From: Candidatus Shapirobacteria bacterium
Lineage (GTDB): Bacteria; Patescibacteriota; Microgenomatia; UBA12405
NCBI GenBank assembly: GCA_041665485.1
Contig: JBAYIT010000001.1
Location: forward strand, 345,399 to 409,398
Length of the DNA: 64,000 bases
Direction: 5' to 3'
Positions 24,864-55,943 of this stretch are shown here, piece after piece. The notes below the pieces were generated by a model that ran no database searches, was not told the origin of the DNA, and saw nothing but the letters and a program-made list of their open reading frames with translations. The first letter of the stretch is position 1. Each line of letters opens with the position of its first letter. The position numbers and the translations under genes were made by a program.

Positions 24864-27239
24864 TTACTTGAGAATGACTTTGATGGGCCAAGATTTCATG
24901 CCAGTGTTCTTTTGTTTGTCCCAAACAGAGAGGGATGTCCAGTAGTCGCCGGCTTTAGTTGGCCAGCCACGAAGAGTACAAGTGAATAACTTTCGAGAGT
25001 CGTTTTTGGCGGTGTATTGACGGCAGGAGCTGTAGAGGCCACGAGGTAAATTGGTGAATTTAAAATAGAGGTAATGTTTTTTATCGGGGTCAGAGCCGGT
25101 GATAGTGGCGGAATAATATTTGTAGCGCTTAAGGACTGGAAAGGAGGTGTCGATGATAGTGATGTGAGAGGGAGGGGGAGCCGGAGGCCCGGGAGGTGAA
25201 GAACCGCCACCACCACCACCAGAATTACCACCGCCACCTCCGCCACCACTTGAAGAGCCACCCCCACCTCCACCGATAGCCGGGGCAGTTGTGGGAGTTG
25301 GTGTATTAGTCGGAATTGGAGTTAAAGTCGGGGTTGGGGTTAGGGTAGGAGTTGGAGTATTGGTTGGCGTTGAAGTTGGGGTGGAGGTGGGCGTTGAAGT
25401 ATTAGTAGGAATAGGTGTATTTGTTGGAGTTGGGCTGGGGGTGGGGGTAGAAGTAGGGGTAATTACTAAATTTGGTATGGCAAAGTTTCGGGTAGTAGTT
25501 CTGGTGTAGGTATATGGCAGTGGGCCACCATCTTTACTAAAAGAAATAAATCCTGATGGGAGACCTAGAGGGTATGTATAACGGTAGTAGTTATAACTAA
25601 CACGGTCATAAGTGACACGAGAATTTTCTGGTTTAGGTTGGTATGAGGAAAGTGAAAAATATTTTGCCGGCGGCTGATAATTCCAATAAGCCATTTCAGC
25701 TTGATCTGAAGAGATGCCGGAGGTGATTGGATAAAGCTCAAAAACTGTTTTATTAAATTGATTATTTGAAAAATCGTGAGTAATGTAGAAAACACGGTTG
25801 CCAAAAGGATTAAGGCCGTTTTGATTGTTGACAGGCCGATAACGCTTATCGAAAGCGGTTGAAACAAATAATACTCTGGCTTTTTTGTTGGCACCAAAAT
25901 AATCAACAGTTAGATCGATATTGGTAACGGTGGGGTTGATCAATGTTTTGGCGGTGGTGTTAAAAATTCGGCTGTCGTAACAAAAAGAGCTTAAATATGA
26001 GTGAGATGTAGAAGCCGTTGAAGTTGAACCGAAAAGATCAAAACACTCTTCTGCGGTAGGATCAATAATAGTAGACGTAAAAGAGGGATAACTTTGATTG
26101 TTACTAGTAAAGCTTATTGGTTGCGAGCTATTGGATTGGCCAAGAGCAAAGAGTTGTTTTAGATTTTTAACTTGATCGCCAGTGATATTAAAAATGATTG
26201 AATTAGTTGAATCTTTGACTTCGGCGGTGATGGTGATGTTGTAATATTCCAATGTTTGAGGGTCGCTGTCGCCAATTTGTCTGGCGGCTGGAACCGGATA
26301 GTAACAGTGAGGAGCTCTCTTTTCACAATCCTCTTTGGCAATTTGTTGCCAGCGGACGTCAGTAGTTTGGCCATTGTTATCAACGTAATCCCAGTAATAC
26401 CCATCAGTACACCAATATTTAATGCCGATGTGTCCTGGCCAAGCCATCTGGACTAAAAACTGTTCACCTTGATATTCGATTTTATCAACTACTGTTTTTA
26501 GTGGGCAGGATAGACCGATTGGGAGTGGAATTGGAGTGGGAGTGGGGGTGGAAGTAGGGGTTGGAGTTGGGGTGGGGCTGTTGGTAGGAGTAGGAATAGG
26601 TGTTGTTGGCGAGCTTGAATTGTATGCGATGGAGCTTGCTTCAAAGTCAACAGTTCCATGACCGATGTTTTGACTGTTGGCCGAGTCGGAGAAATCACCA
26701 TCTAGGTGGAATAGAGATACTGTGAATTCGTCGGGGACAAACGGGGTCGATGGTGGGGTAAAGTTAGCGGCATATCTGACGTTTTTTGAGATTCGAATTT
26801 CATCAATACTCCCATAGAATGGAGCATCGTTTGGTTGATACATTCCAATATAAAAGGGGCCGTTTCCGTAAATGATTGGCACAGAAGTACTAGTTGACCC
26901 TTGGAGTTGTCCGTTAACATACAAGCGACCGTTCTGTCTGTTTTGGTTGTTTGGGTCGTTTACCAAGGCGATGTGTGACCATCGGCCGCATAAATTTGAG
27001 TTGGAGGTAATAGCCTGGACTCCACTACCATACATGAAACGACCAGTGTTATCGTTGTAGATTCCTTTGTATGTGAAAAAGGAGAAAGAGTCATTATAGG
27101 GAAGGTCGAAGTTTTCTCGTTTTCGGAAAGCATAAAAAGTACCATCGGGAGAGTTGGTGCAGTCTTTTTTGATCCAGCCTTCGGCGGTAAATTCTTGGAG
27201 ATTGTAGATGCTACCAGGGAAACTTACGCCTTGCCCCAC
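24864..27239 (-). CDS. large Pro/Thr-rich surface protein with LamG/ConA-like lectin domain (C-terminal 791 aa; same frame as ORF 27378-27866)
   Basis: N-terminal part resembles a LamG-like jelly-roll (GRWSHIALV...LYVNGQ...FYGSIDEIRIS). PT-rich linkers, a poly-Gly/Ser tract and a Cys-containing C-terminal domain follow. Apparent start is GTG, and the frame stays open upstream to the TAA at 27378-27380. Confidence 0.6.
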   Translation of the reverse strand: MGQGVSFPGSIYNLQEFTAEGWIKKDCTNSPDGTFYAFRKRENFDLPYNDSFSFFTYKGIYNDNTGRFMYGSGVQAITSNSNLCGRWSHIALVNDPNNQNRQNGRLYVNGQLQGSTSTSVPIIYGNGPFYIGMYQPNDAPFYGSIDEIRISKNVRYAANFTPPSTPFVPDEFTVSLFHLDGDFSDSANSQNIGHGTVDFEASSIAYNSSSPTTPIPTPTNSPTPTPTPTSTPTPTPIPLPIGLSCPLKTVVDKIEYQGEQFLVQMAWPGHIGIKYWCTDGYYWDYVDNNGQTTDVRWQQIAKEDCEKRAPHCYYPVPAARQIGDSDPQTLEYYNITITAEVKDSTNSIIFNITGDQVKNLKQLFALGQSNSSQPISFTSNNQSYPSFTSTIIDPTAEECFDLFGSTSTASTSHSYLSSFCYDSRIFNTTAKTLINPTVTNIDLTVDYFGANKKARVLFVSTAFDKRYRPVNNQNGLNPFGNRVFYITHDFSNNQFNKTVFELYPITSGISSDQAEMAYWNYQPPAKYFSLSSYQPKPENSRVTYDRVSYNYYRYTYPLGLPSGFISFSKDGGPLPYTYTRTTTRNFAIPNLVITPTSTPTPSPTPTNTPIPTNTSTPTSTPTSTPTNTPTPTLTPTPTLTPIPTNTPTPTTAPAIGGGGGGSSSGGGGGGGNSGGGGGGSSPPGPPAPPPSHITIIDTSFPVLKRYKYYSATITGSDPDKKHYLYFKFTNLPRGLYSSCRQYTAKNDSRKLFTCTLRGWPTKAGDYWTSLSVWDKQKNTGMKSWPIKVILK

Positions 27240-27377
27240 GGTGGTGAGTTTGATTGCCTGGCCGAAAGGGTTGGTTGGTGATGGAATTGGGGTGGTGGTT
27301 GATGTCGGAGTGGGAGTGGAAGTTGCTGTTAGTGTTGGAATGGGTGTGGAATTGGTGGTAGCAGTGAGAGCAACATG

Positions 27378-27866
27378 TTATCTGGTGCTTGTAAATTGCC
27401 AGACTATTTGTGGAGTAGAGGTAACGTCCATTTCATCAACCTTGATGATTGGTGTTTCGCCTTCGTACATGCCGGTGAAAAGGGAAGGATCAATGGATTG
27501 ATCGTGACCGTAAATGTAGGTGTAAGCAAGTTTTCCAGGAGCATTGAGAAGACTGCCACAACCAACTAATTCGCCACGAGGACTGTAAAATTTGACTTGG
27601 GTGCCTTGAGGTAGAGGTTGGCCATCAGAATTGTTTAATTCTCCATAATAGATGGAGTAGACAAAAGATCCGAATCTTTCTCCTGGGCAAATTTGCGGAG
27701 TAGGGGTTTGGGCTCTATTTTTCCAAACAGTTTTTTGTTGGGTAAGAAAAGTAGATAAGGGGAGAACTAAGGCGAGGAAAATAAGTATGCCGACAGTAAT
27801 TTTTTGATCCAGACTAGCTGGTTTTAACCGAGGCATTGAGATAATGGTAGCGGTAGTGGTGATCAT
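27378..27866 (-). CDS. N-terminal signal-anchor segment of the large surface protein (separated from 24864-27239 by one in-frame TAA)
   Basis: 162-aa ORF with TM anchor VGILIFLALVLPLSTFL. Exactly in frame with the downstream ORF, with 46 sense codons (PT-rich) in between. Confidence 0.5.
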   Translation of the reverse strand: MITTTATIISMPRLKPASLDQKITVGILIFLALVLPLSTFLTQQKTVWKNRAQTPTPQICPGERFGSFVYSIYYGELNNSDGQPLPQGTQVKFYSPRGELVGCGSLLNAPGKLAYTYIYGHDQSIDPSLFTGMYEGETPIIKVDEMDVTSTPQIVWQFTSTR

Positions 27867-28123
27867 ATGTCAACAGGTACCGCCGATTATACATACTGGT
27901 TACTTATATGTCAAGTTATAGGACGTTATTTTCCACCGGAACCACGGCTTTGAGTGCGAAAGGCAGTGTTGAATTTAGGGACGTTGAATTGTGGTTTCCT
28001 GAATTGGTTGAAGCCGGGATTTTTGGGAGGAATCCGAACCTCGAAAGGTTTGGTGGCTTGAGGACTTTGGAGAGTGTTGTCTGATGGTTTAGTCATATTG
28101 GTTTATTTTAGCAGAAATTTCTA

Positions 28124-28217: not shown

Positions 28218-29087
28218 TTAAAGAACAGTATAAACGACATCATTAATAGTATTGGCGCCGGAGAGGAGCATGGCAAGCCGGTCGAAACCGAGGCCGACGC
28301 CGGCGATAGGAGTGGGTAGGCTTGCTGAATTGATGGCGAAATTGGGATTAGTGCGGTGGATGGGGAGATTGTTTTGAAGGCGAAAATTGGTTTCGGTGGC
28401 AAAATTTTCTTCGATTAGTTTGGGGTCGGTGTTTTCAGTACAGCCGTTGGCAATTTCCATGCCATTAATATAGAGTTCAAAACGTTCTGCCAGATTATTT
28501 TTTGGTTTGGCTAATGGTGACATGAAGGCAGGGTAGTCAGTAATAAAAATAGGAGTGAGGGGGAGTTTTGGCTCGATATGGTTTAGAAAAATTTGATTGA
28601 GATCCGGCTCGTTTTTGGGGAGAGAAAAGCCCTTGTTGGCAAAAAGTTTAGCGAGGGGAATTCGGGGCCAAGGAGCATTGGGTATCTTTAGTGTTCGAAT
28701 ACTCTTTATTTTATTAAAGCAGTGGGTAATATAGTTTTGGGTAGAAGTCATTAAGTCAGTGTAATTGTGGCCGATTTCGTACCACTCGAGCATGGTAAAT
28801 TCGGGTTGATGAAGAGGGCCACTGGCTTCAAGGTCGCGAAAAGACTTAGAAATGGCAAAACAATTTTGTTTTTGAGTGGCTAAAATCTTCTTTAGGGTAG
28901 ATTCAGGAGAAGTAGCTAAATATAACTTTTGCTTATTGTGTTGCCAAATGGTGGAAAATGAGTAAATATCTGGTTCGATTGGGAGAGAGGGTAGAAGGAT
29001 GGGCGGGTCGACTTCAATAAAACCGTTAGCCCAAAAATATTCCCTGGTAAATTTTAATAATTGCTGACGAATCTCTTGAGGGGACAT
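28218..29087 (-). CDS. epmA: EF-P lysyl transferase-like protein (truncated class II LysRS paralog, EpmA/PoxA family)
   Basis: Motifs YLATSPE, SKSFRDLEASGPLHQPEFTMLEWY align with EpmA (SPE..., FRNE...HNPEFTMLEWY). Size about 290 aa, lacks an anticodon-binding domain. Confidence 0.6.
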   Translation of the reverse strand: MSPQEIRQQLLKFTREYFWANGFIEVDPPILLPSLPIEPDIYSFSTIWQHNKQKLYLATSPESTLKKILATQKQNCFAISKSFRDLEASGPLHQPEFTMLEWYEIGHNYTDLMTSTQNYITHCFNKIKSIRTLKIPNAPWPRIPLAKLFANKGFSLPKNEPDLNQIFLNHIEPKLPLTPIFITDYPAFMSPLAKPKNNLAERFELYINGMEIANGCTENTDPKLIEENFATETNFRLQNNLPIHRTNPNFAINSASLPTPIAGVGLGFDRLAMLLSGANTINDVVYTVL

Positions 29088-29118
29088 TGAAAAAAATTTT
29101 AAATTTTAAATTTTAAAA

Positions 29119-30069
29119 TCAAGAAAAGTATTTTATAACATCTTGGCAGGAGGGTAGGTGGAGGTCTTGAGAATAACCACAATTATATTTTGGATCACAA
29201 CAACCGGAACAGGAAATTTTTAATTTCTCCGTCTGAGACGGACTTCGCTTCGCTTCGCAATTTTCAATTTTCAATGAATGTTCAAATTTATTAATTTCAA
29301 AATTATTAAATAGTTTGCAGTTTTGACAAGTGGAAAGTAAATTTGAAAAATCAGTAACTATTTTTTTAATTGGATCGGAGAGTTTGCCGATAGAAATAGG
29401 GGATTCGCAACAACTATAAATTAGGCCGTTTGACTGAAGAGAGATTTGGGAGCAGCCTAAATTTTTTCCTGGAAAAGTGGGGTAATTTTGTTTAATGTTG
29501 ATAACTTGGGCGGGAGTGAGAGAGCCTAAACGGTCGGTGAGATAGGTAACGGTAACTGGTAATCGGTAATCGGTAATCAGTGATCTGGGAAAAGAGTCCT
29601 TATACTTATATGAATCTTTAGTAATTAGAAAAAAGATACCAACGGGGAAGCCGAGGGAAAGGGCGTGGTTGATAAAGTCGATAGATTTGGCAAAATTGCC
29701 CCCCCCGCGATTTTTGTCGTGAATTTCCTTGGGGCCATCAAGAGAGACCAGAAGCTGGCAGTTTTGAGGATCATTGATTTTATCGAGTTGGTCGATAGTG
29801 CCATTAGTAATAATGGTGATAAATATGCCAAGTTTGAGGAGATTATTGACGAGGCAGGGAAAGCTTTTAAGAGTGAAGACTTCACCACCGCAAAAAGTAA
29901 TAGATCCTAGATTTTGGTTTTTAGATGTTAGATAGGAACGATATCTTTTAACAAAACCTAGAATTTGCTTGTTGGTGAGGATATTTTTAGTCTTGCGGGT
30001 GTAGCAGTATTTGCAGGCAAGGTTACAGGATTCGAGAGGAGAGATATAAAGACTAGTTAGCATGGCCAA
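29119..30069 (-). CDS. radical SAM enzyme with SPASM/twitch-like C-terminal Cys cluster
   Basis: N-terminal CNLACKYCY (Cx3Cx2C) after 14 residues. CGGE SAM-binding glycine motif. C-terminal CSQISLQSNGLIYSCC (Cx8Gx4C) and CQNC...C...SCSGCC...C clusters. Two repeat families are inserted in-frame (29230-29275 and 29545-29585). Probable ATG at 30063, 8 nt after the rpmG stop. Confidence 0.7.
   Translation of the reverse strand: MAMLTSLYISPLESCNLACKYCYTRKTKNILTNKQILGFVKRYRSYLTSKNQNLGSITFCGGEVFTLKSFPCLVNNLLKLGIFITIITNGTIDQLDKINDPQNCQLLVSLDGPKEIHDKNRGGGNFAKSIDFINHALSLGFPVGIFFLITKDSYKYKDSFPRSLITDYRLPVTVTYLTDRLGSLTPAQVINIKQNYPTFPGKNLGCSQISLQSNGLIYSCCESPISIGKLSDPIKKIVTDFSNLLSTCQNCKLFNNFEINKFEHSLKIENCEAKRSPSQTEKLKISCSGCCDPKYNCGYSQDLHLPSCQDVIKYFS
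29545..29585. repeat. ggtaat[ct] heptamer tandem array (in-frame inside radical SAM gene)
   Basis: ggtaacggtaactggtaatcggtaatcggtaatcagtgatc encodes ITDYRLPVTVTYLTD on the minus strand. Family members at 17625-17658, 22246-22265, 43258-43296, 43575-43600, 56471-56510, 61218-61258 and 61624-61662. Confidence 0.8.
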
Positions 30070-41904: not shown

Positions 41905-42459
41905 GTGAGACGAATTTTGACTTATCCTGACCCAATTTTGAGAACTAAAACGAAAGAAGTTAAGGCGGTTGACGAGAAACTGCTTGGTGAAATTAATGAG
42001 TTGAAGGAGATTTTATTAAAGAGTGAAAATGGGGCGGGGCTGGCGGCTACTCAAATTGGGTCGGCGGGCAGGTTTTTTGGATTGAAAAATTTGAGTAAAA
42101 AAAAGACGGAAGTTTTTATTAATCCAAAAATTACCAAATTTTGGGGAGAAAAGACATATCCTCGAATTATAAAAAACAAGGATGAGTCGGAAGATTTTCT
42201 GGAAGGTTGTTTGTCGTTTCCCAATTATTACGGCACAGTGAAGAGATATTTAAAGATAGAGGTGGAGTGGGATGAAATTAGGAGTAAGGAACTTGGTACG
42301 AGGAAAAAGGTGTTGGAAGGGTTTGAGGCGATTGTTTGGCAACATGAAGCAGATCATTTGGATGGGATTTTGTTTATTGACCATATAAAGCGGGACGGGG
42401 GAAAGTTGTATTGGTGGGAAGGAGAAACTAAAAAAGAGATATTAGATCCTAGATTTTAG
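41905..42459 (+). CDS. def: peptide deformylase
   Basis: GAGLAATQIG, EGCLSFP and HEADHLDG are the three canonical PDF motifs. Confidence 0.9.
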   Translation: MRRILTYPDPILRTKTKEVKAVDEKLLGEINELKEILLKSENGAGLAATQIGSAGRFFGLKNLSKKKTEVFINPKITKFWGEKTYPRIIKNKDESEDFLEGCLSFPNYYGTVKRYLKIEVEWDEIRSKELGTRKKVLEGFEAIVWQHEADHLDGILFIDHIKRDGGKLYWWEGETKKEILDPRF

Positions 42460-44393
42460 ATGTTAGATTTTTTGATTTTGTCGAGGTACTTTTGAGCATC
42501 AATGTTGGTGGGGGCAAATTTGAGGGTAGATTCAAATAGTTGACGGGCTTCGGAGTATTTTTTTTGATTAAAGTAGATTTTGCCGAGATTAAAAAGGGCG
42601 TGGTCGTAGTTGGATTTGAGAGCAATGGCTTGTTGATAGTATTTAGTGGCGGTGGTTTCGTCTTTATTAAGTTCGTTAAAGTAGCCTAGGAGATAAAAGC
42701 TTTTGGCGTCGGTGGGGGCTAATTTAACGACTTGCTCTAGGCTATTAATTGAGGCAGAGATCATTTTAGGGTCGAGGGCCGAGAGATAAAAATAATTTTG
42801 GGCTGATTGCTTCCAAAAATTAGTATTGGCGGGAGAGATTTCTAGGGCGAGTTGGGTGAATTGAAGGGATTGACTGGAATAGAGCTTTTTTGACTCCGGA
42901 TTAGAAATGGCGACGGCTAACTTAGCGGTAATTGAGCCGGCGGAGATTAAATATTCCGGTTCGTTTGGCGATAGTTTTAGAGCTAAAATAATTTGAGTCA
43001 AGGCAGGTTGAATTTGGTTTTGGGAGTCAAGAGTTGAGGCTTTGGCAAAACAGATATCGGCCAAAAACAATTTGGAAATTTGGAGTAAGAGAAATAAGGG
43101 GATAATTAAGACTAAAAACAAAAAAGATCGTCGATCGTCGATCGTCGATGGTCGATTATTTTCATTTAGAACGAGGGCGGGGAGGAGAAAGAGGTAGAGA
43201 GAGGTGATGACGATGGAAAAGCCAGTGAGGTTGGTGATGAGAATTGACAAGAAAGAAATGGTAATTGGTAATCGGTAATTGGTAATCGGTAATTTGAGAA
43301 ATAAATATAGAATAGAAAAAATAAGAATAAGATAGGTGAGGAGGCCGAAGGTGCCGGTGGTGGCGGAAAAATTAAGATATTCGTTGTGGGCTTTGTTGTA
43401 GAGGAAATCCCATTCGGAGGTGAGATTGTGAGACGAAGGCCTGGTCCAATAATAGGAATAAGCAAAGGTTTCGACACCGGTGCCAAAGAGTGGGTAGTGG
43501 CGCCAGAGATCGAAAGCGCCTTGCCAGACGATTTTGCGAATATCCTGACTAGGAGTGATATTGATGTTTTGTGACTCGTGATTAGTGATCGGTGATCCGG
43601 TTTTAGAAGGGAACACGAGGTCTTTGATGGGATTGTTGATGATGAGAGTTAGAGTCAAAAGTAAAAAGTAAAAAGTGAAAAGTGAAAGCTTATTTTTTTG
43701 TTTTTGAATTAGAGAAAGGACAAAAAATAAAAACAAACAAACAAGGGCGGTGAGGATGCCGGTTTTGGATTTGGTAGAGAGAAGACAAAAATAGAAACAA
43801 GAACTAAGAGCTAAGAAATAAGATTTATTAATAAAACTCTTTGAATTTAGAAATTTAAAGAGAGAAAAGGGGAGGAGGAGGCAGAGATAGGCGGATAACC
43901 AATTGGGCTGGCCGAAAGTGGAGAAAACTCGTGATTGAACATCCTGAACCCAGTAGGTTTTATCAATGCCAAAGTGTTGGGCTATGCCATAGAGAGAAAC
44001 TATAAATCCAGAGATTAGGGAATAATTAATAATTTTGGATTTTAATTCTTCGGTAATGTGAACAGACAAAATAAAATAGAGAAGAACAAAACAGACAGTG
44101 GAAATTAGGCCACCATTGAGGCGGGAATAGTAACCAAAAAGTGAAGTGTGAATGTCGATGGAAAAAATAGTAGAAATAACTTGGGAAGTTAAAAACAAAA
44201 GAAGGGGAATGGTGAGAAGGGTGGAGCGAAGGAGGTGGTTCTTACCTTTAATCCAGCCATAAAGATGTAAAGTAAGAATGGTAAGGGTGGCAATATAAAC
44301 AAAATACATTTTGGGGACTTCAAAAAGCTCGGAATTTAGGGGGGAATAGAGGAGAGGGGTGAGAAAAAAGAGAAGACAGTAGAGAAAGTTCAT
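42456..44393 (-). CDS. O-antigen ligase (Wzy_C)-family polytopic membrane protein with C-terminal TPR repeats
   Basis: About 10 TM helices, Wzy_C-like WQGAFDLWRHYPLFGTGVETF, and C-terminal TPR-like repeats. Contains in-frame inserts of three repeat families plus a (cgatcgt)4 heptamer microsatellite at 43125-43160. Confidence 0.6.
   Translation of the reverse strand: MNFLYCLLFFLTPLLYSPLNSELFEVPKMYFVYIATLTILTLHLYGWIKGKNHLLRSTLLTIPLLLFLTSQVISTIFSIDIHTSLFGYYSRLNGGLISTVCFVLLYFILSVHITEELKSKIINYSLISGFIVSLYGIAQHFGIDKTYWVQDVQSRVFSTFGQPNWLSAYLCLLLPFSLFKFLNSKSFINKSYFLALSSCFYFCLLSTKSKTGILTALVCLFLFFVLSLIQKQKNKLSLFTFYFLLLTLTLIINNPIKDLVFPSKTGSPITNHESQNINITPSQDIRKIVWQGAFDLWRHYPLFGTGVETFAYSYYWTRPSSHNLTSEWDFLYNKAHNEYLNFSATTGTFGLLTYLILIFSILYLFLKLPITNYRLPITISFLSILITNLTGFSIVITSLYLFLLPALVLNENNRPSTIDDRRSFLFLVLIIPLFLLLQISKLFLADICFAKASTLDSQNQIQPALTQIILALKLSPNEPEYLISAGSITAKLAVAISNPESKKLYSSQSLQFTQLALEISPANTNFWKQSAQNYFYLSALDPKMISASINSLEQVVKLAPTDAKSFYLLGYFNELNKDETTATKYYQQAIALKSNYDHALFNLGKIYFNQKKYSEARQLFESTLKFAPTNIDAQKYLDKIKKSNI
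43258..43296. repeat. ggtaat[ct] heptamer tandem array (in-frame in Wzy-like gene)
   Basis: gtaattggtaatcggtaattggtaatcggtaatt encodes LPITNYRLPITI on the minus strand. Confidence 0.8.
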
Positions 44394-44421: not shown

Positions 44422-46068
44422 ATGGGTAATACAGATAGAGTGGGAGTGGGTGATGTACAGCGTTTTCTTGTTAGTCCTAGTACTCAAGGAGAGTTGGATG
44501 CGATGGCGACGGCAGCCTATGTGGCTCCACCACGAGAAGGAATTAGCATGATGGACCAAGAGTCGCCACTGAAACCCCCTTTAAGGTTTCAAGCTGATGG
44601 AAGAGGCGATTGGGTTTTGGTAAGCAGATCGTTGACTGTTCAAGACTCGGTATTGTTGGCAAAGTTTGACGATGATGGAGAAATTTATTATCGTTTGGCC
44701 AGTGGAACTAAGTTTCGCCAGGAGAACAATATTTCAGATAACGCGATTAGAGGCAGAATGAATAGTAGATATCAGATTGATAGCGCTGGGGGTGAAGTTT
44801 CAAATTGGACATATGGTGGAGTGTTTAATAATAAGGTGGTGTTGTTTTGTGCTGATATTTCAAGACCAGTAGAAGAAAGAGTAACTAGTCGGACAATGAC
44901 CATTGGCGATTTTCTGGCGCTTAAGGAGGCGCAAAGAAAGGGGGGTGTGATTGAAGGTTCGGTGAAACCGGGAGTAGTTATAAATGAAGCAGTTGTTAGG
45001 CCACAACTAGATTTTTACAGACCCAATGGATCGCCAGCAGTGGGTAACTTGTTTAGGTGTGAAAAGGCACTTTTACTACCCGATAATCATGGAGGTTTAC
45101 CTGGGTCGCCTTTTGGAAGGATGTTGGATGGAGCTACGGGGGGTGAGTTAGTAATGGTTCAAGAAGTGCCAGACAGAGGGGCTGAGATTGCGAGAGCGAT
45201 GCAAGAGACAATGGAGATGGTTAAATCTGGCAGGGCGGTTTATTTGATTGGTAACCATGATCCAATGATGATGATGGCGATGAGTGGAGACGAGAAGGCC
45301 CTTTTTAACTGGTTGCATCCAAAATATGGCCACGGCGACGCAACTATTAGGAGTTGTGGATACAATCTTCCGGTTGGTTTTGGAGATGATTTTGAAGAGT
45401 TTCAAAAAACGATCGTACAGATATCTTCAGAATTAAAAACAGACCCTCGGTTTCAGATTTTAAGAGAATGGGTTAAGTTTGTGGAAGATTATGGCAGAGT
45501 TTTTGTTAACATAAATGGTCATTTTGCTGTACATGCAGGATTGCCAGTTGATAAGGCGGGAAACTTGGTAGAAATGACTAAGCTTAAGAAAGATAGTTGC
45601 TTCAAAGGGAAGGTGGGCGTGGCTCTGTTGTTGGAAATGCAGATAGCATTGAGAAAAAAGGATATGGTGGCGATTGGTGAGATGTATGGGGCTAGTGCTG
45701 ATGATGGTGGTTTGAACCCTCTTTGGATTAGAGAGCCCTGGTTTGCCGTAGCCGAAAACCCGGGGTTAGTACATAAAGTTAGAGAGCAACTGAATGAACA
45801 GATGGCTCAGAGGTATCCTAATGATCCGAGGGCTTTGGTAGAGGTGGTTGTTTTGGGCCATTCACCTTGGAGGGGGGATGAGAGGTGGAAATCGCACTCT
45901 ATTTGTCCGAGATTAGTTTTTATTGATGTTGGTTTTGCTGATGATGGGCATGAAAGAGTGTTGAAATTGGAGGTAAATCCAAGTAGTCCATCGACAGTAT
46001 CGGCGACTTATTCGGATCCTTCAGGAAGGGATCCGGTGATGATGGTGGCGAATTATGATTTGCATTAG
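44422..46068 (+). CDS. hypothetical protein with PPP-family metallophosphoesterase-like motifs
   Basis: DNHGG, EVPDRG, YLIGNHD, VHAG and VVVLGHSP loosely follow the GDxHG/GDxxDRG/GNH[DE]/HGG/GH motif order of PPP phosphatases. Has an approximately 200-aa N-terminal extension. Confidence 0.4.
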   Translation: MGNTDRVGVGDVQRFLVSPSTQGELDAMATAAYVAPPREGISMMDQESPLKPPLRFQADGRGDWVLVSRSLTVQDSVLLAKFDDDGEIYYRLASGTKFRQENNISDNAIRGRMNSRYQIDSAGGEVSNWTYGGVFNNKVVLFCADISRPVEERVTSRTMTIGDFLALKEAQRKGGVIEGSVKPGVVINEAVVRPQLDFYRPNGSPAVGNLFRCEKALLLPDNHGGLPGSPFGRMLDGATGGELVMVQEVPDRGAEIARAMQETMEMVKSGRAVYLIGNHDPMMMMAMSGDEKALFNWLHPKYGHGDATIRSCGYNLPVGFGDDFEEFQKTIVQISSELKTDPRFQILREWVKFVEDYGRVFVNINGHFAVHAGLPVDKAGNLVEMTKLKKDSCFKGKVGVALLLEMQIALRKKDMVAIGEMYGASADDGGLNPLWIREPWFAVAENPGLVHKVREQLNEQMAQRYPNDPRALVEVVVLGHSPWRGDERWKSHSICPRLVFIDVGFADDGHERVLKLEVNPSSPSTVSATYSDPSGRDPVMMVANYDLH

Positions 46069-53686: not shown

Positions 53687-53727
53687 GATCTTAGATCTTG
53701 GATCTTAGTTCTTAGATTCTAGATTAC
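53687..53727. repeat. gatctta heptamer tandem array
   Basis: ggatcttagatcttggatcttagttcttagattctagattac at the 3' end of the ATPase gene. Same family at 60048-60080, 42445-42476 and 41270-41305. Confidence 0.8.
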
Positions 53728-55943
53728 TTATGCTTGCCCCAGCGTTCTTGGGAAGTGCGGATGAGCTTATCGTGGCCTTGGTTTTTACAGTCAAGTAGAG
53801 GCAGAGTGGTGGCGTAAAATGGTTCTTTGGTTTCGGAGTCGATCGATAATTTACAAATGATTTGATATTTGCCCAGTTTGACTAGGTCATCGGCGGGGAA
53901 CTTCTCGCCAAATTCTTTGCTTAAGATATAAGCGTCTTGATTGCCAACGACAAAGGACATAAGTGAGCCGACGTTGCCAAAAATAGCGTCTTGGATGGGG
54001 CGCTCAAGCTGATTCATATATTGGTTGGCAACAATGAGGTTGAGTTTAAATTTGCGGGCTTCAGAGAGTATTTTAATAAAGGCCTCGGTGGCAAAATTTT
54101 GGAATTCGTCAACGTAGAGATAGAAGTCTGATCGGTCGGCTTGTGTTTGAAATACCCGATTCATGGCCGAAAGTTGAATTTGGGTGATCAACATGGCGCC
54201 AAGAAGGGCAGAATTATCTTCGCCGAGTTTGCCATTGGACAGGTCGGCGATCAAGATTTTCTTTTGATCCATGATATCTTGAATGCGGACTTTAGATTTG
54301 GGGTGGGCAATAGTGTTGCGGATATTAGTGGAGGAAATAAATTGGCCGACTTTGTTCAAAATAGGAGCGATGGCTTCGTTTTGGAATTTGGCATCCATTT
54401 GATCAAATTCATTAATCCAGAAGTTTTTAAGAGTTTGATTGGCAAGGAGAGGAACGATTTTTTGGCGATAAGATTTGGAGGTGAGAATTTCAACGATATG
54501 AGTGAGATCGGAGCCGGGAACGTTGACGAGAGTTAAAACGGCGTTGCGCAAAATATGCTCGAGGCGTGGCCCCCAGGAGGTGGCGCCATAAAGTTTTTTG
54601 AAAATGGAAATAACGCCGGAGGCAACTAATTCTTTTTGGGAATCGTTTTCAGCCTCCAAAACATTTAAGGGGTAAACATAATCGGGATCGGCGGGGTTGA
54701 AATAACAACAATCGTTGATGCGGGAGGAGGGGATGTAATCAAGAATAGTTTGGCAAAGGTCGCCGTGGGGGTCGATGACGGCTACGCCCCGGCCTTTGCG
54801 AATATCGTCGATGGCCATGTTGGCGATGAGAGTGGTTTTACCGGTGCCGGATTTACCGACAATGTAGGTGTGGCGGCGGCGGTCTTCACCTTCTTTAATG
54901 CCAAAAATAGCTTCTTTATTGCGGAATTCGGTTTTGGCAAAAACAGTCACGTTTTGACGTTCTTCTTCGGAAAGGTCGGCAACGACGGGTAAGTTTTCGG
55001 GCGGATCAGCATACAGCTTTTTGCCCCAAGCAATGTTGGGGATCTTGGTTTTTTCTCCGGGAAAGTGCCAAAGGACTGACAATTCTTCAGTGTTTAAAAT
55101 TTGATGATTAAGAGAAGAAGTAAAAGCGCGGTTAAGAATCGATTTGAGTAATTTCTTTTTGGTGAAAAAACCGGGTTGATTAATTTTAATAAAATTGCCA
55201 CGAGGGTTGGTATAAATGCCAAAGGAAGAGGTAAAAGCAGATAGAAGGCCGGAATTATTGGTTAAAAAATTAATTTGGGTGAGGAGGCCGGGGAATTGGA
55301 TTTTGGTTTCGAAAACGGCCTTATCGGGGTGATTTTGGCGAAAATTGCGGGATGAGTCGACCATGATGCCATTTTGAATGATGGAGGTGATGGGGTATTG
55401 CCAATTGTTGGGGGCGGAAGTGATTAAAATTTGATAAAGAAAAAAATCGGTGGGGGAGAGGGAGCGGGAAAGGGGGGAGAGGAGGGAATTAAGGGGATCA
55501 GTGTCCTTAAAATCGTGAATGGATTTTATTGGATAATTGTCTGATTTTGATAAGGACAATTGACTAAAAAATAGCCCGTCATCGCGAGGCCGAAGGCCGT
55601 GGCGATCTCCTTGGGATTGCTTCGTCGCTTCGCTTCTCGCAATGACGTCGGAAGCAAGGTAATCATTAATTTCCAAAGTAATAGCGGTGGGGTACTGGGC
55701 TAGGATTTGGGAGCGAAAGAATTCGGCTGAATCGGCAGGCGTTGCCACCATAAAATAAAGCTGGCCTTGTTTGAGAACGATTTCTAAAGAAATGGCGGTG
55801 TGCTTTTTGCCAAAGATGCGGTCAAAAAACGAGCCTGTGCCGGCTTGAGAAAAATTAGAGAGGAGGGAGGACATGGATTCGAGAGTGAATTCGTTGGTTT
55901 GAGGAAGACGGATGTTGAAGAGTTTCCAGGGAGACATAACCAA
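53724..55943 (-). CDS. P-loop NTPase of the TraG/TraD/VirD4-like (DUF87/AAA-like) conjugation/secretion ATPase type
   Basis: Walker A IVGKSGTGKTTL and Walker B YLYVDEFQNF in a C-terminal domain of about 400 aa. No N-terminal TM helices. Carries a complete REP-like element in-frame (55577-55648, encoding SDVIARSEATKQSQGDRHGLRPRDD). Confidence 0.5.
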   Translation of the reverse strand: MVMSPWKLFNIRLPQTNEFTLESMSSLLSNFSQAGTGSFFDRIFGKKHTAISLEIVLKQGQLYFMVATPADSAEFFRSQILAQYPTAITLEINDYLASDVIARSEATKQSQGDRHGLRPRDDGLFFSQLSLSKSDNYPIKSIHDFKDTDPLNSLLSPLSRSLSPTDFFLYQILITSAPNNWQYPITSIIQNGIMVDSSRNFRQNHPDKAVFETKIQFPGLLTQINFLTNNSGLLSAFTSSFGIYTNPRGNFIKINQPGFFTKKKLLKSILNRAFTSSLNHQILNTEELSVLWHFPGEKTKIPNIAWGKKLYADPPENLPVVADLSEEERQNVTVFAKTEFRNKEAIFGIKEGEDRRRHTYIVGKSGTGKTTLIANMAIDDIRKGRGVAVIDPHGDLCQTILDYIPSSRINDCCYFNPADPDYVYPLNVLEAENDSQKELVASGVISIFKKLYGATSWGPRLEHILRNAVLTLVNVPGSDLTHIVEILTSKSYRQKIVPLLANQTLKNFWINEFDQMDAKFQNEAIAPILNKVGQFISSTNIRNTIAHPKSKVRIQDIMDQKKILIADLSNGKLGEDNSALLGAMLITQIQLSAMNRVFQTQADRSDFYLYVDEFQNFATEAFIKILSEARKFKLNLIVANQYMNQLERPIQDAIFGNVGSLMSFVVGNQDAYILSKEFGEKFPADDLVKLGKYQIICKLSIDSETKEPFYATTLPLLDCKNQGHDKLIRTSQERWGKHK
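55577..55648. repeat. REP/MITE-like palindromic element, copy 3 (inside ATPase coding sequence, in-frame)
   Basis: cgtcatcgcgaggccgaaggccgtggcgatctccttgggattgcttcgtcgcttcgcttctcgcaatgacg. Confidence 0.8.

Follow-up and report, generated by a model that had tools for sequence, protein, structure and literature searches.

Nonsense pseudogenes and null alleles of bacterial surface proteins, in which a single premature stop codon interrupts a long, modular and linker-rich open reading frame (ORF) for an extracellular protein, are the closest described counterpart of the locus analysed here. The locus lies in a 64,000-nucleotide stretch of DNA (hereafter, the window) from a Candidatus Shapirobacteria genome (GenBank assembly GCA_041665485.1, contig JBAYIT010000001.1). 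It comprises two consecutive ORFs on the minus strand, which we propose to be the two parts of one gene for a membrane-anchored surface protein with a LamG domain. As in such pseudogenes, the stop is single, and the promoter and the downstream frame of the window gene are still intact, which points to a recent event. The window gene differs in its host, an uncultured member of the Candidate Phyla Radiation (CPR), for which there is no sister strain with an intact allele to polarise or date the loss.

An in-frame stop within a coding sequence of the CPR also calls to mind stop codon reassignment and programmed read-through. In Gracilibacteria and Absconditabacteria, UGA is translated as glycine. 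In the window, by contrast, the codon in question is TAA, which terminates most of the window genes, and there is a single such site in 64 kb.

At the protein level, parts of the locus can be compared with described families. The downstream part matches Laminin_G_3 well above the curated threshold, but LamG is only one of about five modules, and neither carbohydrate binding nor any other activity of this domain can be read from the sequence. The N-terminal domain belongs to the same domain family as that of the YLP-box proteins (NF050076). In the window protein and in its continuous homolog P0068, however, this domain stands at the N-terminus behind an anchor and is followed by a Pro/Thr (PT) linker instead of a YLP-box tail, and the window copy is moreover cut by the stop. 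P0068 shares with the window protein the anchor, the beta-sandwich domain, the PT linkers, a Cys-rich start of the middle region, a poly-Gly/Ser tract and a C-terminus with two cysteines, and the coding strand of its contig is likewise rich in C. It differs in that it contains neither LamG nor an internal stop, and most of the middle region is without detectable similarity between the two.

Here we argue that the gene for a membrane-anchored surface protein with a LamG domain is present at this locus as a young nonsense allele or pseudogene, a reading to which we assign a probability of about 0.72.

Two ORFs with the layout of a single gene

Translated in one frame, the minus strand from 27866 to 24864 gives 1001 codons, in which the sole internal stop, besides the terminal TAA, is codon 163 (Table 1). 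The sequence-only reading of the locus had described two ORFs in the same frame, parted by a single TAA (27380..27378), and 46 open, in-frame codons between this TAA and the annotated GTG. Both points are borne out by the translation. The 46 codons read HVALTATTNSTPIPTLTATSTPTPTSTTTPIPSPTNPFGQAIKLTT, and there is no ATG, GTG or TTG among the in-frame codons from 27377 to 27240. Across 60 ORFs of the window, the open run that continues in the same frame after the stop has a median length of 11.5 codons, as compared with 837 codons after the TAA at 27380..27378. Where other long ORFs of the window follow on in the same frame, they start 0-16 codons past the preceding stop, a spacing that represents ordinary tight gene packing, as against 46 codons at the interrupted gene. 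The length of the open run and the 46-codon gap, set against the rest of the window, indicate that the two-ORF configuration is more than chance. No other interrupted gene or stop of the same configuration was found within the 64-kb window. Gene callers differ on the start of the downstream ORF, for which they predict either 791 or 723 amino acids (aa); the 723-aa call starts at an ATG that is codon 69 of the 791-aa ORF and lies inside the LamG match.

Homology supports the view that both ORFs derive from one ancestral gene. P0068 is a single uninterrupted ORF of 762 aa on a 5,965-bp Logan contig (SRR22387926, locus L005). Its N-terminus matches that of the window, that is the anchor and the beta-sandwich domain, with 32% identity (E=1e-22), and a pairwise comparison with the window C-terminal domain gives 34% identity (E=2e-20). 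In P0068, a PT linker follows directly past the last strand of the beta-sandwich domain, and a second linker of PT and poly-Gly/Ser composition comes later in the protein. A Cys-rich module is similar to the start of the window middle region (E=0.01). Both window ORFs are homologous to consecutive parts of this one continuous protein. P0112, too, passes from the beta-sandwich domain straight into a PT linker, and since P0068 and P0112 are both continuous, the architecture of the family appears to be that of a single polypeptide. To judge by these alignments, the window protein adds a LamG module to a P0068-type architecture. The earlier proposal that the two ORFs were once a single gene thus gains weight from the homology with P0068, from the domain that spans the TAA and from the PT linker in the gap. 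The continuous ORF that it had suggested looking for in relatives is found in P0068, which is uninterrupted, though distant.

The stop lies within a conserved beta-sandwich domain

With the 162-aa ORF as query, an exhaustive HMMER search returned 212 proteins at E<=1e-3, which have a domain of about 100-110 aa in common. These proteins range in length from 116 to 3888 aa, and the domain follows a signal peptide, is repeated in tandem or forms the C-terminus. Model searches show that the domain is absent from Pfam and NCBIfam. In a multiple sequence alignment of 70 homologous domains, the end of the domain is marked by the conserved pattern 'W..D...H.[VI].L'. The window reads 'VWQFTSTR*HVALTATT' at this place, and P0098 reads 'WTNDRDIHQVTLTATT'. 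At the position of the window TAA, the distant homologs in this alignment are all continuous.

A profile of 108 positions was built from the 70 homolog domains, with the window sequence left out. The ORF alone matches positions 10-95 of this profile, and the in-frame read-through matches positions 10-107 and scores 4.2 bits higher. Neither the +1 nor the +2 frame past the TAA extends the profile match. For a structural view we used an AlphaFold2 (AF2) model of the stand-alone homolog P0099, calculated from a 50-sequence alignment, which represents this homolog and not the window protein itself (mean predicted local distance difference test score (pLDDT) 89.9, domain about 98). The model is a seven-strand beta-sandwich, in which the last strand comprises 8 residues (138-145, LHPITVYA). 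The last residue of the window ORF, R162, aligns to P0099 position 138.

Taken together, the end motif of the alignment, the profile extension and the alignment to the P0099 model place the stop at the last strand of the domain. On this model, the TAA would remove the final core strand of the beta-sandwich, and this strand is encoded right after the TAA, in the same frame. The sequence-only reading had placed a PT-rich linker between the two pieces. Such a linker exists, as the 46 codons do hold PT linker 1, but the TAA itself lies inside the folded domain and not in the linker.

A Foldseek search of the P0099 model against the PDB gave weak, generic sandwich matches, the best of which is the C-terminal domain of the PapC usher (E=1.6e-3). 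The model is also weakly similar to prealbumin-like folds. A PDB sequence search and PADLOC returned nothing meaningful.

In many homologs (P0099, P0064, P0111, P0198, P0059, P0063 and others), the domain directly precedes an ultrashort C-terminal '[YF]LPL[VI]xR' tail, which corresponds to the 'YLP-box putative sorting motif' of NCBIfam (NF050076, NF053834). In their sequences, these YLP-tailed homologs resemble Chloroflexi-type surface proteins. The beta-sandwich domain may act as a conserved stalk or pre-anchor module.

The premature TAA is genuine in the DNA

The identical 162-aa product is encoded on four contigs: ENA ERZ27249449 (411,674 bp), JGI 3300037810, Logan SRR6484324 and Logan SRR18595301. 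These represent two SRA runs with distant accession numbers plus the JGI and ENA assemblies, and they come from different pipelines. The NCBI record of the product lists it as a hypothetical protein of a Candidatus Shapirobacteria metagenome-assembled genome (MAG). The DNA of the window is 100% identical to the copies in the other assemblies, except for one mismatch to the JGI contig (L002), beside a scaffold gap (Ns) that falls within a neighbouring gene. JGI 3300037810 derives from groundwater well GW1, 2017, beside a Southern Ontario landfill (bioRxiv 10.1101/2024.05.30.596742).

The premature TAA is genuine in the DNA. A sequencing or assembly error, in which case the true codon would be a sense codon, had been offered as one possible cause. 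Single-base errors are possible in metagenome assemblies, and nothing else speaks in favour of this explanation. Since identical DNA is carried by four assemblies, which were generated with different pipelines and from at least two SRA runs, an error is very unlikely, and we regard it as essentially excluded.

The stop could also be real but not fixed. In this case, the population would be polymorphic at the codon (TAA versus sense), the assemblies would show the majority allele, and the gene would be functional in a subpopulation. The intact downstream frame would fit with ongoing selection somewhere in the population, and phage- or host-driven selection is conceivable, as surface proteins are common targets of both. 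However, TAA is present in all four consensus assemblies, and a word-based search of 5.8 billion protein clusters recovered no uninterrupted allele. We therefore consider a polymorphism of this kind rather unlikely.

TAA usage and possible translation past the stop

Of the 60 window ORFs with a length of 120 aa or more, TAA closes 31, TAG 17 and TGA 12. As the commonest normal terminator in the window, TAA is not reassigned, and stop codon reassignment was rejected on this ground and because there is one interrupted gene in 64 kb.

Programmed read-through finds no support either. The homologs are continuous, no unusual RNA structure was detected in the 120 nt around and after the TAA (z=-0.5), and there is no suppressor tRNA among the five tRNAs of the window (Ala, Trp, Ser and two Thr, all ordinary). 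At the stop, the sequence reads ACCAGATAACATGTTGCT, with no repeat tract or slippery repeat at the TAA site. Slipped-strand phase variation was rejected, as the site is devoid of repeats and both parts are already in the same frame. Reinitiation at an ATG that overlaps the stop ('TAACATG') was another candidate that we rejected, because this ATG is out of frame and meets a TAA after 15 codons. Read-through and phase-variable expression had both been named in the sequence-only reading as ways in which the stop might be used. Read-through receives no positive support, given the lack of RNA structure, the lack of a suppressor tRNA in the window and the standard use of TAA as a terminator. Phase variation fares no better, as the stop is of the substitution type and no repeat tract is nearby.

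Another scenario is that the TAA is leaky or suppressed. The cell would then produce mostly the short anchored fragment and a little full-length protein, which could tune or diversify surface display. The 837 downstream codons are intact and show a coding-type codon-position bias, the promoter is perfect, and the base following the stop is C, which is among the weaker termination contexts in E. coli. On the other hand, both release factors recognise UAA, which generally leaks less than the other two stop codons, and it is the commonest terminator of the window. The stop is followed by no RNA structure, and the window tRNAs include no suppressor. Nor is the stop conserved in the family, in which P0068 and P0112 are continuous. 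Finally, programmed read-through extensions are usually found at domain boundaries, whereas this stop truncates a domain. A leaky stop is in our view unlikely. That the Shapirobacteria lineage suppresses or reads through TAA at a useful rate, and so obtains a short fragment and a tunable amount of full-length LamG protein from one transcript, would explain the 837 intact downstream codons and the perfect promoter; we hold this to be distinctly improbable.

Expression signals

The promoter upstream of the ATG is the only site with 12/12 matches between 24600 and 28200. Between the TAA and the GTG, the minus strand contains no promoter-like site. The GTG at 27239 is the first in-frame start after the TAA and lies in C-rich, coding-like sequence. 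The LamG alignments, to both the Pfam model and P0002, begin at this codon. A protein that starts there would have the apparent LamG boundary as its first residue, without a signal or anchor. With no promoter, a distant GTG and no signal sequence, the downstream piece appears to have no means of independent expression.

These observations bear on the possibility that the locus consists of two genuine genes, one for a small anchored protein of 162 aa and one for an independent protein of 791 aa that starts at GTG 27239. Gene callers do output two genes, and the domain also occurs on its own in proteins of about 150-170 aa, for example P0099 and P0111. A Shine-Dalgarno motif is missing before the GTG, but it is unrecognisable at most window genes (upstream regions of about 60 ORFs), and because such motifs are rare throughout the window, its absence is uninformative. 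However, the stand-alone homologs have a complete domain, whereas the window ORF stops short of the last strand, which is encoded after the TAA. The stretch of 46 codons after the TAA encodes a PT linker that resembles linkers 2 and 3 of the protein. The GTG product would be devoid of a signal or anchor, though its domains are all of extracellular type. In addition, there is no promoter between the pieces, and P0068 is continuous. Two separate genes are thus very improbable.

A TATAAT-like box is found about 7-20 nt before the start of several genes, for example 42456..44393 (minus strand), 44422..46068 (plus strand) and the gene starting at 27866 (minus strand). This suggests that leaderless or short-leader initiation, independent of Shine-Dalgarno motifs, is widespread in the genome.

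A recent nonsense mutation as the preferred explanation

We propose the following model for the origin and the present state of the locus. The intact gene would have encoded, in this order, an N-terminal anchor, the beta-sandwich domain, a PT linker, LamG, a second PT linker, a Cys-rich orphan region, a PT and poly-Gly/Ser segment and a C-terminal region with two cysteines. A single base substitution would then have turned codon 163, where the final beta-strand of the first domain begins, into TAA. Ribosomes that initiate at ATG 27866, downstream of the strong promoter, would terminate at this codon, and the product would be an anchored fragment of 162 aa, in which the first domain is incomplete. 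The remaining 837 codons would be essentially unexpressed, with no start for 46 codons and no secretion signal. We infer this loss of expression from the sequence; the segment 24864..27239, as the rest of the gene, is most likely translated poorly or not at all.

The third-position GC skew of the downstream part is -0.62, which is similar to that of intact minus-strand genes, and the frame is open for 837 codons. As the downstream frame is intact and its skew of the coding type, the mutation is probably recent. Among the causes that the sequence-only reading had offered, a recent pseudogenising nonsense mutation fits best with the real TAA, its position within a domain and the continuous P0068.

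Several points weigh against this explanation. An intact frame of 837 codons and a perfect promoter are equally expected under continued selection, be it through read-through or through a polymorphism. The four assemblies probably represent one clonal population from one landfill or groundwater site, and as the copies look clonal, they say nothing on the conservation of the stop. Homolog searches and scans of contigs found no ortholog closer than 32% identity. Lastly, the profile gain from the post-stop strand, at 4.2 bits, is modest.

Modules of the surface protein

The features of the locus are listed in Table 1.

Table 1. Features of the interrupted surface-protein gene; positions are those of the window, and residues are numbered along the read-through protein.
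Feature	Position	Strand	Remarks
Sigma-70-type promoter TTGACA-17 nt-TATAAT	27886..27914	-	12/12 matches; 19 nt upstream of ATG 27866
Upstream ORF	27378..27866	-	ATG, 162 aa; N-terminal membrane anchor and most of the beta-sandwich domain; ends at the premature TAA
Hydrophobic segment ITVGILIFLALVLPLSTFL, residues 23-41	27744..27800	-	Read as signal anchor from sequence; pattern kept in P0068
N-terminal beta-sandwich domain, ~110 aa, residues ~58-171	27354..27695	-	Spans the TAA; no Pfam/NCBIfam model
Premature TAA, codon 163, next base C	27378..27380	-	Putative start of the last beta-strand of the beta-sandwich domain
46 open codons	27240..27377	-	Predicted last domain strand HVALTAT, then Pro/Thr linker 1
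Downstream ORF as listed	24864..27239	-	GTG, 791 aa plus TAA; no own signal peptide
LamG / concanavalin-A-like lectin domain (Laminin_G_3, PF13385)	26775..27236	-	Pfam; residues 211-364
Pro/Thr linker 2, residues 417-445	26532..26618	-	Sequence
Middle region, 351 aa	25461..26513	-	Cys-rich start weakly like P0068 (E=0.01), remainder orphan
Pro/Thr linker 3, residues 803-863	25278..25460	-	Sequence
Poly-Gly/Ser tract, residues 865-890	25197..25274	-	Sequence; counterpart in P0068
C-terminal domain, ~100 aa, two conserved Cys	24867..25169	-	Motif LPxGLYSSC ... F.CT.RG.P; homologous to the P0068 C-terminus

The hydrophobic segment at residues 23-41 probably acts as a signal or transmembrane segment. 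From the N-terminus through this anchor (27866-27744, minus strand), the window protein has a pattern in common with residues 1-60 of P0068, M..TT.T...MP ... L.QK....I..FLA..LP.S...T.....W..RA. The conservation of the N-terminus suggests that it serves as a sorting or anchoring signal specific to this family, and not as a generic signal peptide.

Downstream of the stop, the Laminin_G_3 match (E=2.9e-19, 70.2 bits versus a cut-off of 27.6) covers profile positions 4-145 of 151. It corresponds to residues 48-201 of the post-stop translation, for which BLASTP also gives an alignment to the LamG repeats of P0002. A search with the 351-aa middle region gave no hits, and AF2 predicts no usable fold for it from the single sequence (pLDDT 32). 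The C-terminal domain with its two cysteines has no Pfam match. When the 837 aa after the stop served as the query, PT low-complexity and LamG-only matches swamped the result and no ortholog could be discerned. Four scans of genome and metagenome contigs, with the middle region and with the N-terminal alignment, yielded no confirmed relative. The overall description given in the sequence-only reading, of a signal-anchored, multi-linker protein with LamG, poly-Gly/Ser and a Cys-containing C-terminal domain, agrees with the features found. A role in surface binding or adhesion is plausible: the predicted anchor, the linkers and the lectin-like domain, together with the CPR taxonomy, would fit an adhesin of an epibiotic bacterium.

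Genomic context and strand composition

The neighbouring genes encode an S41 peptidase, NfeD, SPFH, an EpmA-like class II synthetase paralog, a radical SAM protein, a GDSL lipase and an SBF transporter. They are housekeeping genes with no functional link to the surface-protein gene. The EpmA/PoxA-like protein is a truncated paralog of class II lysyl-tRNA synthetase (289 aa, tRNA-synt_2 E=3e-44), and its gene adjoins that of the radical SAM protein (316 aa) at 28218-30069 (minus strand). The two may form an elongation-factor-P modification pair. In the JGI assembly, the EpmA-like gene is split in two by scaffold Ns. Further along the window, a protein of 739 aa (53724-55943, minus strand) has matches to TrwB/type IV coupling protein and HerA (DUF87) ATPase domains and may belong to a system for DNA transfer, or to one of the competence type, in this reduced genome.

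The plus strand of the whole window (1-64000) contains 18888 G and 8385 C, an extreme disparity that corresponds to a GC skew of +0.385, and the sign of the skew stays the same throughout the 64 kb. The third-position skew ranges from +0.3 to +0.76 in plus-strand genes and from -0.39 to -0.77 in minus-strand genes, and so tracks the DNA strand, not the gene strand. The same skew has been reported for the Microgenomates order UBA1400, with 29.8% C versus 15.0% G and a monotonic cumulative skew (Kadnikov et al. 2020, PMC7143001). In the light of that report, the disparity of G and C between the strands is a known oddity of the lineage. The skew visibly shapes the amino acid composition: the products of minus-strand genes have a high content of Pro, Thr, Leu, Gln and Asn.

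Implications

That a large, linker-rich gene for a surface protein carries a premature stop in a MAG is in itself ordinary. For annotation, it means that two 'hypothetical proteins' (162 aa, and 791 or 723 aa) would be better described as fragments of one gene of about 1000 codons, that is, as a single interrupted gene. Beyond this, the locus documents a modular family of Microgenomates surface proteins, which combine an anchor, an uncharacterised beta-sandwich, PT linkers and a two-Cys C-terminal domain. In addition, the locus provides one case of a strain that has apparently lost such a surface protein very recently. If this loss were adaptive, for instance as an escape from phages or through a changed attachment to a host, it would have a bearing on the ecology of the CPR, which for now is hypothetical.

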